Below are positions 4,397 through 11,344 of a DNA stretch of 13,012 nucleotides, piece after piece. Numbering within the stretch: position 1 is the stretch's first letter; every line of letters begins with the position of its first letter. The notes under the pieces were generated by a model, which was given only the letters and a program-made list of their open reading frames with translations, did not search any database and had not been told where the DNA came from. A program made the position numbers and the translations under genes. Source of the DNA: a virus (taxonomy: Duplodnaviria > Heunggongvirae > Uroviricota > Caudoviricetes); the IMG/VR virus record IMGVR_UViG_2667527633_000002. One strand, written 5' to 3'.

Positions 4397-4581
4397 TGTG
4401 CACATCCTTTTGGCATCAGACGTAAACGAGCCAGCATTGAAACAATGCATATTTTATTTAATAGCTCCCGTTCTTGTTTTCTCTTGTTAATGGCATCTTC
4501 AGTAAATACTGGGTTACTGATAGTGACACCAATTTCAAAACAACCTTCAGACGTATTAACGTTTGGTAATAACGTTTTCAT
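4393..4581 (-). CDS. dicB: Cell division inhibitor DicB (MinC-interacting)
   Basis: 62-aa product MKTLLPNVNTSEGCFEIGVTISNPVFTEDAINKRKQERELLNKICIVSMLARLRLMPKGCAQ, recognised as DicB from memory. GAGGA Shine-Dalgarno 7 nt upstream of the ATG at 4581. Located immediately downstream of the dicF sequence. Confidence 0.8.
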   Translation of the reverse strand: MKTLLPNVNTSEGCFEIGVTISNPVFTEDAINKRKQERELLNKICIVSMLARLRLMPKGCAQ

Positions 4582-4750
4582 TATCGCGTCCTCAACAATG
4601 AATTTTGTGATGCAGTGCCTGGTGCCTCCAGGTGACGTTAACCAGTTAACAATTAACGCCGGATACAGAGAATCCACCCATAACACTGTTTTTGGTTTTA
4701 ACTGTTCCGCGTGCGCTCAGCCGCATTCACCACATCACAAAATTCACTTT

Positions 4751-4808
4751 AAAAAGGGCGGCAGAGCAGTCACGGAGTAAAACTGATACCGCCAAACGTC
4801 ACCAGAAA
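4751..4808 (-). ncRNA. dicF: DicF small regulatory RNA (ftsZ-targeting), including terminator U-tract
   Basis: The minus-strand sequence TTTCTGGTGACGTTTGGCGGTATCAGTTTTACTCCGTGACTGCTCTGCCGCCCTTTTT matches the DicF sequence as I recall it. GGCGG and CCGCC arms followed by a T5 run form the terminator. Lies between ydfC and dicB as in the dicB operon. Confidence 0.75.
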
Positions 4809-5974: not shown

Positions 5975-6613
5975 TTAAATATCTTGTTGAATTTTAAAGC
6001 ATACGCCCAATATGCAAGATAGATCATCCAGCATAATTGAAGGGTAGCGAGGATTCGTGGGGACTAAAAGAATATCCGGCCCTTCTATCTCCAGTTTACG
6101 AATGACAGGTGTTGTGGTCCCTTTGGGTAAGGCAAGGACAATATTTCCTGGTTGTACGGTTCGATCGGGATCAACAAAAACTGTTGAACCATTTGGGATG
6201 GAAACTCCCCCACCAGATGTTGACATACTGTCACTCTCTAGAACAACTGCAAAGGTATTGACCGGGATTTCTCCGACAAGCTGCACACAAGAGGTTATTG
6301 AGGAATTTTTCATATAATCACTCCAGCTTGCTGCCTGCTGAAGTGATAGTAGCGGAACCGTTTTTATCGGCGGTAAAGATAGATCAAGCGAATCACCTGT
6401 ATTTAACTCTCCTCCATTAAGAAGCCAATTTTCGTTTACTTTCAATATTTTTGCCAGTGAACTTATGTAACGCGAGGACGGCGCTCCTCCACCGTTCATC
6501 CATTGACTTACGGAGCCTTTTGATGCGCCAGTGCCATTGACAAGGTCTTTGCCTTTCAGGTTTAGCGCATGCATACGTTGGGTTATGCGTTCAGATATAG
6601 TTTGCTTGCTCAT
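5975..6613 (-). CDS. CI/LexA-like prophage repressor (N-terminal XRE HTH, C-terminal S24 autopeptidase)
   Basis: 212 aa. N-terminus has an HTH-like segment. C-terminus has an S24-like serine (VLESDSMS) and lysine (VIRKL). Transcribed divergently from the Cro-like gene. No Shine-Dalgarno precedes the ATG, and a TAAAAT hexamer ends 6 nt upstream of it, suggesting a leaderless mRNA. Confidence 0.9.
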   Translation of the reverse strand: MSKQTISERITQRMHALNLKGKDLVNGTGASKGSVSQWMNGGGAPSSRYISSLAKILKVNENWLLNGGELNTGDSLDLSLPPIKTVPLLSLQQAASWSDYMKNSSITSCVQLVGEIPVNTFAVVLESDSMSTSGGGVSIPNGSTVFVDPDRTVQPGNIVLALPKGTTTPVIRKLEIEGPDILLVPTNPRYPSIMLDDLSCILGVCFKIQQDI

Positions 6614-9652: not shown

Positions 9653-9821
9653 TTTTGGTTCAACTAAATACAACGTCAGTTTTGAAGAATGGCATGAACT
9701 GTTAATGGACTATGCAGAGTTACGTGGTGGCAGTGCTGCTGATGCTGAAGCATGGCGTGATGATTATGAAGCAGGAAAAACTCCGGTCGAAGCATATTGT
9801 GATGAGTGGGGCGATGAATGA
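9645..9821 (+). CDS. Small acidic protein (58 aa), not in the supplied ORF track
   Basis: Hand translation gives MADFGSTKYNVSFEEWHELLMDYAELRGGSAADAEAWRDDYEAGKTPVEAYCDEWGDE. The ATG overlaps the previous gene's end (ATGGCTGA), with a GAGGA Shine-Dalgarno 9 nt upstream. Its stop overlaps the next start (ATGA). Confidence 0.45.
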   Translation: MADFGSTKYNVSFEEWHELLMDYAELRGGSAADAEAWRDDYEAGKTPVEAYCDEWGDE

Positions 9822-10134
9822 GCGAGGTTAATTATCAGGAAGGGCATGAAACGGCGGGGCAAGCAAAAACAGTGGCATGGCGATATCGCTACGTGAAAAA
9901 AAAGGCGTTACGGACTTTCAGGGGAAGTAGTGGTCTGGTGACTGGAAATATGTACCGAAAAAAGAGGATTGTAACGACAGGCCGAACTATGAAATTCAGG
10001 CCTTATTCACTGCCCCGCCAGTCCCGGTTACATCAGAAGAACTGGTTAAAGCTGTGCACTTTTATGAACAACTAAAACGCGAAAATCCACCAGCATCCGG
10101 AAACCTGATTACAGATTCCCAGATAAGGCAATGA
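9818..10134 (+). CDS. Hypothetical gene that changes frame at an A_AAA_AAG heptamer (candidate programmed -1 frameshift, pseudogene or homopolymer error)
   Basis: The ATG-initiated frame (9818-10075) turns arginine-rich and unprotein-like after about codon 49. The -1 frame is open from 9931 to 10134, is protein-like (EDCNDRPNYEIQALFTAPPVPVTSEELVKAVHFYEQLKRENPPASGNLITDSQIRQ) and has no start codon of its own. The slippery heptamer A_AAA_AAG sits at 9958-9964 in the zero frame. Confidence 0.4.
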
Positions 10135-10229
10135 GCTACCTGGCGCAGAACGGGCTGATAAGTATGGGGAATGTTTTACGATGAATATTTAGACTAAAGA
10201 GTTTGTAACGCTATGTAAGTGATTTTTTC

Positions 10230-10258
10230 TGGTTTAGATATTTATATGTCCGGCCAAA
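10230..10258. repeat. Imperfect direct repeat R1 (partner at 10501-10535) flanking the small membrane-protein gene
   Basis: TGGTTTAGATATTTATATGTCCGGCCAAA versus TGGTTTAGTTGGATATTTACTGTGCCGGACAAAAA. Confidence 0.4.
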
Positions 10259-10304
10259 TTGAGGTGTGTTTAAATGTAATTGCACATTGATTGTAGGAGG
10301 AATA

Positions 10305-10484
10305 ATGAAAAACGCATTGCAGTTTTTGTTTGTTGCGTTCTGGTTGTTCGTATCATGTATGCCCATCATCTTCACAGCAAGGTATATGGAAAAAGTTGAT
10401 GTTTTGATATTAATATTTGGATATATAAATGCCCTTTTTTTAGGGGTGTTCATGGCGGTCATGTGCATTGAATACTGGCGGTAA
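10305..10484 (+). CDS. Small hydrophobic membrane protein (59 aa, two predicted TM helices) in an AT-rich island
   Basis: AGGAGG lies 4 nt upstream of the ATG. MKNALQFLFVAFWLFVSCMPIIFTARYMEKVDVLILIFGYINALFLGVFMAVMCIEYWR. By eye the surrounding 10140-10500 is much more AT-rich than its flanks. Confidence 0.55.
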   Translation: MKNALQFLFVAFWLFVSCMPIIFTARYMEKVDVLILIFGYINALFLGVFMAVMCIEYWR

Positions 10485-10500
10485 ATACAGCGAACGCCAT

Positions 10501-10535
10501 TGGTTTAGTTGGATATTTACTGTGCCGGACAAAAA
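10501..10535. repeat. Imperfect direct repeat R2 (partner of 10230-10258)
   Basis: See R1. Overlaps the region where a hok promoter would be expected; a TAGAAT hexamer lies at about 10554-10559. Confidence 0.4.
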
Positions 10536-10742
10536 CGGTTTGCGGGGAAATCTTAGTTAAGTAGAATGACTGCGGGTGCTTGAGGCTATCTGTCTCAGGC
10601 ATGAACACCAAAAGGCAGATAGAGAAAAGCCCCAGTTAACATTACGCGTCCTGCAAGACGCTTAACATTAATCTGAGGCCATATCTATGCGACACATAGA
10701 GATTAGCCTCTTACGGACCGAAAGGTCAAGGAGAAGCAGGCT

Positions 10743-10898
10743 ATGAAGCAGCAAAAGGCGATGTTAATCGCCCTGATCGTCATCTGTTTAACCGTCATAG
10801 TGACGGCACTGGTAACGAGGAAAGACCTCTGCGAGGTACGAATCCGAACCGGCCAGACGGAGGTCGCTGTCTTCACAGCTTACGAACCTGAGGAGTAA
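10743..10898 (+). CDS. hokD: Hok-family type I toxin (HokD/RelF-like, 51 aa)
   Basis: MKQQKAMLIALIVICLTVIVTALVTRKDLCEVRIRTGQTEVAVFTAYEPEE matches HokD as I recall it. Below the ORF-track cut-off. AAGGAGAAG lies upstream. Confidence 0.85.
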   Translation: MKQQKAMLIALIVICLTVIVTALVTRKDLCEVRIRTGQTEVAVFTAYEPEE

Positions 10899-10966
10899 GA
10901 GACCTGGCGGGGGAGAAATCCCTCGCCACCTCTGATGTGTCAGGCATCCTCAACGCACCCGCACGT

Positions 10967-10995
10967 AACCCGCTTCGGCGGGTTTTGTTTTTTCC
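10967..10995 (+). terminator. Intrinsic terminator downstream of hok
   Basis: AACCCGC-TTCG-GCGGGTT: 7-bp stem with a UUCG tetraloop, followed by TTGTTTTTT. Confidence 0.6.
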
Positions 10996-11065
10996 TGGCA
11001 TTCTGGTTTACAATTCGCACGCCAGCCTGAACAACTGGCACCTGCTGCGCCAGCAGAGACAACCG

Positions 11066-11344
11066 ATGGCGCACGATACCAAATTACACAATTCTAATGA
11101 TTCTGCCGTCTTTGCCAGTAGGTGCGGACGGCGTTTTCACGCATTCAAATCAGACTGGTTCCAGCATCCTCCATGCACTGAAGAGCAGGCGGAATGGATA
11201 ATTCAGTGTTACCGCAGGCGCGGATACGAGGTTAAGAAAGCTCTTAGCCTCGACTACCGTCACTGGATAATCTCAGTCAGACTCCCTTACTCCGAACGCC
11301 CACCGCGTTCATCCCGCACATACCAGCAACGGATCTGGAGGTAA
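11066..11344 (+). CDS. Hypothetical protein (92 aa), at the position of rem in Qin
   Basis: The track ORF from 10937 would span the hok terminator, so the internal ATG at 11066 is preferred. Its Shine-Dalgarno is weak. Basic, Cys-containing protein. Confidence 0.4.
   Translation: MAHDTKLHNSNDSAVFASRCGRRFHAFKSDWFQHPPCTEEQAEWIIQCYRRRGYEVKKALSLDYRHWIISVRLPYSERPPRSSRTYQQRIWR

Follow-up and report, generated by a model that had tools for sequence, protein, structure and literature searches.

The window, a 13,012-nucleotide stretch of DNA from a Caudoviricetes virus, contains a 59-codon open reading frame (positions 10305-10484) that, judging from how it has diverged among its relatives, is a real protein-coding gene under between-lineage purifying selection. 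Its product is probably an inner-membrane protein, expressed from the early operon, which is predicted to self-associate and to serve the phage as an accessory factor. In lambdoid prophages of the Qin/DicB type, the gene occupies a slot in the early region that is read rightward, with the replication genes on one side and DUF968-RusA-Q on the other, and it comprises or adjoins the following features:

9818-10184, plus strand: frameshifted, internally deleted upstream gene (a PGAP pseudogene in NZ_CP075472)
10185-10304, plus strand: AT-rich leader (30.8% GC), from the stop of the upstream pseudogene to the ATG
10230-10258, unstranded: left imperfect direct repeat
10295-10300, plus strand: Shine-Dalgarno sequence AGGAGG, followed by AATA, 4 nt to the ATG
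10305-10484, plus strand: gene for the predicted 59-aa two-helix membrane protein (MKNALQFLFVAFWLFVSCMPIIFTARYMEKVDVLILIFGYINALFLGVFMAVMCIEYWR), including the stop codon (from the ORF, homologues and AlphaFold2)
10435-10441, plus strand: T7 homopolymer in codons 44-46, the site of frameshift alleles
10501-10535, unstranded: right imperfect direct repeat, with its 3′ half (GGACAAAAACGG) in conserved sequence that directly precedes the -35 hexamer of hok
10540-10567, plus strand: inferred hok promoter, TTGCGG (10540-10545), 16-nt spacer and TAGAAT (10562-10567), placed by sequence, with the start near 10574
10574-10745, plus strand: hok mRNA leader with the sok antisense region (Rfam RF01794)
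10743-10898, plus strand: hokD coding sequence, 51 aa (ORF; called by PGAP in matching genomes)
10967-10984, plus strand: terminator-like intrinsic hairpin 3′ of hokD (terminator scan)

The 59-codon gene and its relatives

The reading frame opens with the ATG at 10305 and closes with TAA at 10482-10484. The first-pass annotation had described a strongly initiated 59-aa gene with AGGAGG-N4-ATG spacing, which can be read directly from the sequence; position 10298 of the Shine-Dalgarno sequence is polymorphic (A/G), with AGGGGG in 30 of 48 haplotypes, and the related prophage of E. coli TA280 carries GGGGGG in its place. The protein has a single Met start followed by Lys, ends in IEYWR, and is strongly hydrophobic (GRAVY 1.31), with two hydrophobic segments. 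These agree with the two helices (residues 2-24 and 30-58) of an AlphaFold2 model of moderate confidence (mean pLDDT 71.5), and the earlier description of a small hydrophobic two-helix membrane protein holds as a prediction. Two other coding assignments were rejected. An opposite-strand 85-aa ORF, called "hornerin" or hypothetical in three phage records, contains stops in both other lineages; the extension of the 72-aa GTG-start form found in some records is out of frame in B2, and the Shine-Dalgarno sequence precedes the internal ATG.

A phmmer search of 1.84 billion representatives recovered P0037 (59 aa, 41% identity over residues 1-59, E 3.7e-9); the B2-lineage homologue (59 aa, 41% identity) lies between ttcA and uspF. 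A word-indexed profile search for further lineages added the TA280 form alone (P0095, 59 aa, 76% identity). Invariant positions are M1, L5, L8, W13, S17, C18, P20, I21, I22, T24, L36, F38, G39, A43, L44, G47, E56 and W58. Equal length, the shared W13/S17C18xP20/G39x3A43x3G47/E56xW58 motif and between-lineage purifying selection mark the window, TA280 and B2 ttcA-uspF forms, by sequence comparison, as three lineages of a new small family.

Evidence for selection comes from three pairwise comparisons among only three lineages, between which dS is saturated. Within these bounds, dN/dS (Nei-Gojobori) is 0.19 for window versus B2, 0.22 for TA280 versus B2 and 0.35 for window versus TA280. Identity by codon position follows the order 2>1>3 in all three pairs: positions 1/2/3 are identical at 34/43/28 of 59 codons between window and B2 (Fisher test of position 2 versus 3, p 0.008), 37/42/31 of 59 between TA280 and B2 (p 0.057), and 51/54/44 of 59 between window and TA280 (p 0.025).

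Variation within lineages tells less. Because choosing loci by protein identity was biased, that choice was dropped and the polymorphism set comprised loci chosen by their flanking DNA pattern. Of the 107 viral loci so picked, at least 104 have an intact ORF, and within-lineage substitutions in the ORF number 12 nonsynonymous and 0 synonymous. In the B2 remnant, 3 ORF polymorphisms were observed against 5 expected from the flanks, a reduction that is not significant; with the 12:0 count, this leaves present-day constraint unproven. Frameshift alleles in the T7 run give 55-aa products (P0019, P0021, P0024 and P0025), with one deletion at 10435, and independent IS insertions were found in the island region. 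Together, these alleles and insertions show that the gene is dispensable.

Of 5426 complete E. coli genomes, 1570 (~29%) carry the window lineage and 1045 (~19%) the B2 lineage, yet in almost all genomes carrying either one the gene is uncalled by PGAP/RefSeq. Strains with an exact copy include E. coli O104:H4 2009EL-2071 and UMNF18. Among GTDB species representatives the only copies were those of Shigella and E. coli, and metagenome contigs yielded the two lineages already known and none further. An apparent tandem duplication in TA280 proved to be a scaffold-gap artefact, and a "Klebsiella oxytoca plasmid" match, a linear 9.5-kb contig whose genes resemble those of E. coli Qin, was not taken to indicate a broader host range. 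Apart from this Klebsiella-labelled contig, the family has been seen only in Escherichia and Shigella. Searches with the ORFs of both strands and with all family members gave no significant match in Pfam, PHROGs, NCBIfam or PADLOC; a PDB sequence-profile search with the 59-aa protein gave none, and Foldseek of its model against BFVD returned generic helical hairpins only (E ≥0.8). The peptide string was absent from the literature searched, and a keyword search of a recent survey of Hok diversity and localization found no mention of a 59-aa neighbour.

Composition and surroundings of the island

GC content over 10140-10540 is 0.372 (37.2%), compared with a mean of 0.476 (47.6%, sd 0.047) for 401-nt segments across the whole 13 kb; only 0.9% of these segments are equally low, and the lowest (0.357) starts at 10169. 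This calculation bears out the first-pass view of a stretch more AT-rich than its surroundings, with a composition unlike that of the flanking phage genes, as expected of a moron. The start given there, 10140, falls within the 3′ end of the frameshifted upstream gene, and the island proper spans ~10185-10530. GC1, GC2 and GC3 of the ORF are 0.34, 0.27 and 0.51, respectively. GC3 is host-like, and the low coding GC is thus due to the hydrophobic residues rather than to foreign base composition. The leader (10185-10304) is ~75% identical to its TA280 counterpart, and its RNA fold z-score (-0.35) gives no indication of a structured or riboswitch-like 5′ region.

Imperfect direct repeats of ~30 bp had been proposed to flank the island and to mark an insertion boundary. 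A weak match is present, gapped and imperfect (TGGTTTA..GATATTTA..TGTCCGG.CAAA; ungapped core of 25 nt, 72%), and its alignment score of 15 compares with ~9.3 in nulls; the resulting p of ~0.01-0.015 applies to one pre-chosen pair, and is unremarkable for a pair picked by eye from 13 kb. TA280 and B2 lack the repeat, the left flank matching the right no better than shuffles do (p 0.27 and 0.32). In comparisons among prophages, left mosaic breakpoints fall at 10093-10155 and never in 10230-10258, where the lone junction (10237) is an IS1-like end. Right breakpoints (10527, 10550 and 10554) correspond only loosely to the right repeat and represent the start of the hok promoter module; other prophages share the window sequence from 10527 onward. 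As the repeats mark no boundary, the hypothesis fails as regards insertion, by the observation that its author had named as refuting it, and we judge the repeats to be a chance similarity.

The slot itself is variable among related prophages. In locus L004, an unrelated 85-aa soluble-looking gene stands between the same upstream gene, there in an intact 171-aa form, and hok/sok, and the content differs again among L005, L006 and L007; a relative with a clean empty slot was not found. The window copy of the upstream gene was inspected in three frames, and its 3′ end, which is divergent from ~10094 onward, moves together with the island. A sigma-70 consensus scan of 9900-11100 detected no promoter belonging to the 59-aa gene, and the sole terminator follows hokD; the scan is a simple consensus test, which a weak or non-sigma-70 promoter may escape. 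The label of moron, in the classical sense of a gene with its own promoter and terminator, thus finds no backing in these scans, and the gene is probably transcribed within the rightward early (PR-type) operon.

Downstream, the hok leader matches RF01794 at 106.7 bits (gathering score 59) over model positions 1-157 of 157, and PGAP labels hokD in matching genomes as "type I toxin-antitoxin system toxin HokD". The hok promoter, which scores under the threshold of the consensus scan, was placed by sequence, by the Rfam model start and by conservation across unrelated upstream contexts. The gap from the end of the ORF to the hok leader is 89-91 nt in 248 of 250 evaluable loci. TA280 has the same arrangement of ORF then hok, and the B2 remnant retains a hok 3′ fragment (80% identity, E 4e-13) ~55 nt past the ORF; the distance from the ORF to the hok/sok locus or hok fragment that follows it is therefore 55-91 nt across the three lineages.

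The first-pass annotation also held that relBE is absent and that the island occupies its position in Qin. The absence was confirmed, neither RelB nor RelE having a tblastn match in the window, and the arrangement of Qin in E. coli K-12, with relB/relE directly upstream of hokD, does not occur here. The claim of position was not upheld. The relBE cassette enters at window-equivalent 10744/10729, downstream of the hok leader and between it and the hokD coding sequence, with the island still upstream; in K-12-like genomes (H75-H78), the match to the window begins only at 10729. Both elements occur together in PhiR42_1 and at least 52 fetched loci, and in ~52 fetched loci a 3.3-kb IS-flxA-ydfV-relBE cassette leaves the ORF with the hok leader on one side and the hokD coding sequence on the other. 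relBE is not allelic to the island.

Alternative readings of the locus

The most sceptical reading is that there is no gene, only a frame open by chance in a T-rich, AT-rich spacer, with hydrophobicity following from base composition. ATG-initiated ORFs of at least 59 aa arise in 6% of island shuffles, so that length by itself is not significant; PGAP leaves the frame unannotated, the family matches no other, and the within-lineage excess of nonsynonymous changes points the same way. Chance would nevertheless have to account for a 59-codon length and invariant polar and small residues kept at 41% identity, for dN/dS of 0.19-0.35 with third codon positions the least conserved, for a correctly spaced Shine-Dalgarno sequence in two lineages, and for the presence of stops in relatives in every frame except this one. 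We regard this reading as very improbable. The original model of an AT-rich moron between ~30-bp direct repeats at the Qin relBE site is more improbable still. The window does reach its lowest GC here, the repeat score exceeds most nulls (p ~0.01), relBE is absent and the L004 slot holds an alternative gene. Against this, the left repeat is never a breakpoint and has no counterpart in TA280 or B2, relBE inserts elsewhere and coexists with the island, GC3 is host-like, and neither a promoter and terminator of the gene's own nor an empty-site relative was found.

Two further readings accept the gene and assign it a sharper function. It could encode a toxin that damages membranes unaided, or a pinholin-like pore former, and so serve as an effector of abortive infection or lysis timing. 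The size, the two predicted helices, the probable N-in/C-in topology and the G39xxxA43xxxG47 face would, by analogy, resemble class II holins and pinholins, and one family member has a faint match to a PHROG "holin" (phrog_785, E 0.015). However, the match comes from 1 of 8 members only, and correction for multiple testing leaves it non-significant; Pfam, NCBIfam and PADLOC offer none. The gene lies outside the lysis cassette, matching prophages carrying a class II holin gene and YdfR ~5.5 kb downstream, and the protein has neither a charged C-terminal tail nor a dual-start motif. No restraining antisense RNA, antitoxin gene or structured leader was found in the region searched, and an ORF intact in a decayed remnant in 1045 genomes is unexpected for an unregulated toxin. 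We consider a pore former unlikely. Slightly less likely again is that the protein is a functional partner of hok/sok, for instance by modulating Hok insertion or toxicity or by giving immunity against it, which would make the locus a three-part module. In none of the three lineages has the ORF been seen to lack a hok gene or fragment 55-91 nt downstream, whereas hok/sok recombines away at 10527, 10550 and 10554 and is also found with other upstream genes; the dependence thus looks one-sided. Both products would also be small inner-membrane proteins. However, there are three lineages only, most prophage hok loci lack the ORF, and hok/sok of plasmid R1 works alone. Moreover, the ~52 loci with the 3.3-kb cassette separate the ORF and leader from the hokD coding sequence, the ORF stays intact in the B2 remnant although hok is truncated, and a 90-nt gap leaves little room for recombination, such that adjacency may be mere tight linkage. 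A stronger version, which we rate as a long shot, would make the hairpin an obligate hokD-type companion that tunes or exploits Hok, with one copy domesticated in B2-type chromosomes after prophage decay.

A candidate membrane accessory factor

We favour an early-expressed inner-membrane accessory protein. Read from the rightward early operon, the gene would yield product mainly after induction or infection. The protein would probably enter the membrane as a hairpin, N-in/C-in, with a basic N-terminus (MK, MKK, MRK), a loop that is either acidic or neutral (RYMEKVD, EEMEEVD, EYLTEAS) and a conserved E-x-W-R at its C-terminal end. W13 and S17-C18-x-P20 in helix 1, with G39-x3-A43-x3-G47 in helix 2, may provide a packing face for helix-helix association, and the protein may self-associate in the inner membrane and serve the phage there as an accessory factor. 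Perturbation of the membrane, or binding to a membrane protein of the host, could then affect superinfection, host physiology or Hok action. The topology and the oligomerization, like any part in exclusion, toxicity or modulation of Hok, are guesses from sequence. We do not think that the protein is structural or belongs to the lysis cassette.

This candidate can be compared with several known systems. Like Hok/Gef, its product is predicted to be a small hydrophobic inner-membrane protein, and its gene shares a prophage region and a strand with hokD at a distance of 90 nt; however, the product would have two helices rather than one and has no Pfam or NCBIfam match at E up to 10, and the gene showed no sign of an antisense RNA, of mok-like coupling or of a structured leader. 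Rfam searches of 10185-10530 were empty at E up to 1, although a novel RNA could escape them, and the minus strand there shows neither promoter nor terminator for an antisense antitoxin RNA. Class II holins and pinholins, such as S21 68 of phage 21, are proteins of ~60-70 aa with two transmembrane helices and a Gly/Ala zipper face. The 59-aa protein would share the two predicted helices, the probable N-in/C-in topology and the small-residue face of helix 2, whereas its gene falls in the interval from the replication genes to hokD and has neither the charged tail nor the dual start. T4 Imm, P22 SieA and HK97 gp15 are small phage membrane proteins that block superinfection. The present gene is similarly an accessory gene in a variable region for a predicted small inner-membrane protein, but homology to these is lacking in PHROGs and BFVD and no lysogen-active promoter was identified for it. 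DicB, YdfD, YdfC and YdfB are also short accessory genes of the same prophage type, found in cryptic prophages and of largely unknown benefit; in contrast, they are annotated by PGAP, unrelated in sequence, and located on the other side of the immunity region on the opposite strand. The morons of HK97 and HK022 have their own promoter and terminator and deviant composition, and are present or absent between otherwise adjacent genes. The island resembles them in deviant composition, in a slot with alternative content and in accessory character, but differs in that a promoter and terminator of its own and an empty-site relative were not found, alternative cassettes fill the slot, and GC3 is host-like.

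Small membrane proteins are systematically overlooked by genome annotation, and the 59-aa gene gives annotators a new family at a locus that some phage records have annotated on the wrong strand. The Qin relBE-hokD picture is also corrected: relBE is a cassette inserted after the hok leader and ahead of the hokD coding sequence, rather than a substitute for the island. We see no sign of a new mechanism. The finding is of value for annotation and for a link to hok that can be tested, the gene being a cheap, defined experimental target adjoining one of the best-studied toxin-antitoxin loci.

Evidence that the 59-codon frame is coding

The AT-rich island contains a 59-codon frame directly upstream of a hok/sok locus that is complete. 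The features of this part of the window are as follows.

9818-10184, + strand: upstream gene, internally deleted, and frameshifted with an internal stop according to PGAP in matching genomes
10295-10300, + strand: Shine-Dalgarno sequence AGGAGG, followed by an AATA spacer
10305-10484, + strand: 59-codon ORF, from the ATG at 10305 to the last base of the TAA stop at 10484
10435-10441, inside the ORF: T7 homopolymer, the site of frameshift alleles with 55-aa products (P0019, P0021, P0024, P0025)
10540-10567, + strand: inferred hok promoter (TTGCGG 10540-10545, 16-nt spacer, TAGAAT 10562-10567)
10574-10745, + strand: sok RNA (Rfam RF01794), 106.7 bits, full model length
10743-10898, + strand: hokD coding sequence
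10967-10984, + strand: terminator-like hairpin after hokD

The first-pass annotation had described a strongly initiated gene (AGGAGG-N4-ATG) for a hydrophobic protein of 59 aa, which is confirmed by reading of the sequence and by a GRAVY of 1.31. The product, MKNALQFLFVAFWLFVSCMPIIFTARYMEKVDVLILIFGYINALFLGVFMAVMCIEYWR, has two hydrophobic segments, and AlphaFold2 modeling from an 8-sequence alignment placed helices at residues 2-24 and 30-58 (mean pLDDT 71.5); the earlier view of a two-helix membrane protein therefore stands as a prediction. The window has AGGAGG as its Shine-Dalgarno sequence; 30 of 48 haplotypes have AGGGGG, and the TA280 form of the gene has GGGGGG.

The length of the ORF alone is unconvincing, because an ATG-initiated ORF of at least 59 aa occurs in 6% of island shuffles, and a T-rich strand gives hydrophobic translations by default. 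The island region is present at 95-100% identity in 1570 of 5426 complete E. coli genomes, with PGAP annotation absent in almost all. A word-indexed protein search matched only near-identical E. coli/Shigella copies plus broken forms, while exhaustive phmmer against 1.84 billion cluster representatives recovered a protein of exactly 59 aa (P0037; 41% identity over residues 1-59, E 3.7e-9), with P0095 of E. coli TA280 (76% identity) coming from a profile search. Comparison of the window, TA280 and B2 forms, the last a diverged chromosomal copy between ttcA and uspF, gave dN/dS values from ungapped codon alignments of 0.19 (window versus B2), 0.22 (TA280 versus B2) and 0.35 (window versus TA280). 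Identities at codon positions 1/2/3, out of 59, were 34/43/28, 37/42/31 and 51/54/44 for the same pairs; this order (2>1>3) is as expected of coding sequence, and positions 2 and 3 differ with p 0.008 for window versus B2 and 0.025 for window versus TA280. In addition, M1, L5, L8, W13, S17, C18, P20, I21, I22, T24, L36, F38, G39, A43, L44, G47, E56 and W58 are invariant in the family. The dN/dS values, codon-position order and invariant residues together show, at the level of sequence comparison, that the ORF on the + strand is a genuine gene.

In the relatives, stops interrupt all other reading frames, among them the antisense frame that the window keeps open. Three phage records annotate instead an 85-aa ORF on the opposite strand, two of them as 'hornerin' (ON470612.1 23105-23356; ON470619.1); this ORF is broken in both diverged relatives, and we thus regard the annotation as a wrong-strand call. 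A 72-aa GTG-start form annotated in some records carries a 13-codon upstream extension; because this extension falls out of frame in B2, the conserved form is that of 59 aa.

Lineages and adjacency to hok/sok

The window lineage occupies the rightward early region of lambdoid Qin/DicB-type prophages, where YdaT-like, replication, DUF977 and DUF7167 genes precede the ORF and DUF968 (YdfU), RusA and Q follow. The hok leader lies 89-91 nt 3' of the ORF in 248 of 250 evaluable fetched loci, the two exceptions being one IS insertion and one scaffold gap. The TA280 lineage (76% identity to the window protein) takes the same slot of a similar prophage, with hok/sok next at the same spacing. The B2 lineage (41% identity) is found, unannotated, in 1045 of 5426 complete genomes, among them those of ATCC 11775, LF82, EC958 and ST131 strains. 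Here ttcA and uspF are separated by ~2.3 kb of debris (L212 6984-9259) that contains the gene, in the order integrase fragment, intact ORF, hok 3' fragment, ABC-3 (sit-like) permease fragments and uspF. The hok fragment begins ~55 nt after the ORF (L212 8235-8300) and matches window 10811-10876 at 80% identity (E 4e-13). An intact sitABCD-like operon adjoins the ttcA-uspF remnant in one strain (L216).

ORF-hok adjacency thus holds in all three lineages, one of which is at saturated synonymous divergence. The converse fails: many different neighbours can precede hok/sok, in which case window homology begins at 10527, 10550 or 10554. The inferred promoter block is likewise conserved before hok where the surroundings are otherwise unrelated. 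Neither the GTDB species representatives nor the metagenome contigs that were scanned yielded another lineage or another genus. A 9.5-kb linear record labelled 'Klebsiella oxytoca plasmid unnamed9' (NZ_CP069920.1) carries the ORF with hokD, rem, DUF968, cspB, cspF, ynfU and essD; since these are E. coli Qin-like prophage genes, we do not count it as a wider host range, and instead of a plasmid the record may represent contamination or part of a prophage. An apparent tandem duplication of the ORF region in TA280 is false, the same sequence standing on both sides of a scaffold gap (L219 6215-6480, GL884358.1) that also yields the 'partial' protein record P0095.

Several RNA matches were seen in the window. 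A weak isrK-like Rfam match (10907-10988, + strand; 27.1 bits, gathering score 50) overlaps the hairpin after hokD. A full-length DicF sRNA lies at 4756-4807 (- strand; RF00039, 76.7 bits), adjoined by a sub-threshold STnc100 match (4549-4758, - strand; 34.4 bits, gathering score 47).

Base composition, direct repeats and the relBE cassette

The AT-richness of 10140-10540 is borne out by windowed calculation (37.2% GC versus 47.6% for the whole window): only 0.9% of 401-nt windows in the 13 kb are at or below this value, with a minimum of 35.7% starting at 10169. The position 10140 falls inside the 3' end of the upstream gene, and the island proper therefore spans ~10185-10530. Within the ORF, GC1/GC2/GC3 is 0.34/0.27/0.51; its low GC stems from hydrophobic amino-acid content, third positions looking host-like, and the most AT-rich part is the 120-nt leader before it (30.8% GC). 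The low GC thus argues only weakly for a recent acquisition from a foreign source. An intact 171-aa form of the upstream gene occurs at L004 2674-3189, and the divergent 3' end of this gene (from ~10094) co-varies with the island and holds most left mosaic breakpoints.

Imperfect direct repeats had been proposed to bracket the island (10230-10258 and 10501-10535). The similarity exists, as a gapped alignment with a 25-nt core at 72% and a local score of 15 against a null of ~9.3 (p ~0.01-0.015), but three findings speak against its being meaningful: the pair is undetectable in TA280 (p 0.27) and B2 (p 0.32), and the left mosaic breakpoints in related prophages (10093, 10098-10111, 10149 and 10155) all fall within the upstream pseudogene, with none in the left repeat copy. 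Thirdly, the conserved hok promoter region begins within the right copy, whose 3' half is thus part of the hok module. The pair accordingly does not mark an island boundary.

relB and relE are indeed absent from the window, but the island does not occupy their position in Qin. In relBE-carrying loci (PhiR42_1, PV340562, and at least 52 others fetched), window homology runs through the island and the entire hok leader to 10744, is interrupted by ~3.3 kb (IS, flxA, ydfV, relB, relE), and picks up again from 10729 on, with the hokD coding sequence; island and cassette thus coexist. A 15-nt direct repeat, GGAGAAGCAGGCTAT, stands on both sides of the cassette (L003, the PhiR42_1 locus, 6590-6606 and 9879-9895); this sequence is the hokD Shine-Dalgarno/start region (window 10729-10744). 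It is therefore the relBE cassette, rather than the AT-rich island, that forms a repeat-bounded insertion here. In K-12-like genomes, similarity to the window starts only at 10729, and a cassette between hok leader and hokD would explain a K-12 hokD without its own leader.

Variation and possible function

Viral contigs for polymorphism analysis were picked by a flanking DNA pattern, so that the ORF sample was unbiased. In the window lineage the ORF is intact in at least 104 of 107 copies, and all nine substitutions are nonsynonymous, as are all three in the B2 ORF (L212 8001-8180), where polymorphism shows no significant drop relative to the flanks (3 observed, 5 expected). The within-lineage ratio of 12 nonsynonymous to 0 synonymous (p ~0.05 under neutrality), set beside dN/dS of 0.19-0.35 between lineages, may reflect relaxed selection, diversifying selection or chance. 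L101 has IS1 inserted at 10378, L078 an IS1-like end next to 10237, and L146 an IS3-family-like end next to 10497; these insertions are independent, in different genomes, and all within the AT-rich island. Several database proteins are ORF-IS fusions or T7-run frameshift products, although the 55-aa alleles may be true variants or sequencing errors. Given the insertions, fusions and frameshifts, the 59-aa gene is dispensable.

The ORF is oriented with the entire early-right gene block, and we found neither a consensus promoter nor a terminator in the interval from the upstream genes to hok, nor any unusual structure in the leader before the ORF. The gene would be transcribed with the early-right operon, chiefly after induction or infection. 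Family N-termini are basic (MK, MKK, MRK), loops are acidic or neutral (RYMEKVD, EEMEEVD, EYLTEAS) and the C-terminus has a conserved E-x-W-R; the product would insert N-in/C-in. One face of helix 1 (invariant W13, S17-C18-x-P20) and one of helix 2 (G39-x3-A43-x3-G47) may mediate helix packing or self-association. On this basis, our committed guess is a self-associating inner-membrane accessory factor acting on the membrane or a membrane protein.

The main functional alternatives are that the protein is directly linked to Hok, or that it acts as a toxin or like a pinholin; no family, fold or defence-system match, nor the literature searched, backs any of these three readings. The protein is not a member of the Hok family. 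It differs from lysis-cassette holins in location, C-terminal tail and the lack of a dual start, and, since a search for an antisense RNA to the gene gave nothing, it cannot be called a demonstrable type I toxin. The island had also been read as a moron, but it is not a classical one, since neither an own promoter or terminator nor an empty-site relative was found. Overall, the 59-aa protein is best classed as a small new family of two-helix membrane proteins carried by prophages, notable for its near-universal non-annotation and its invariant placement adjoining hok/sok.
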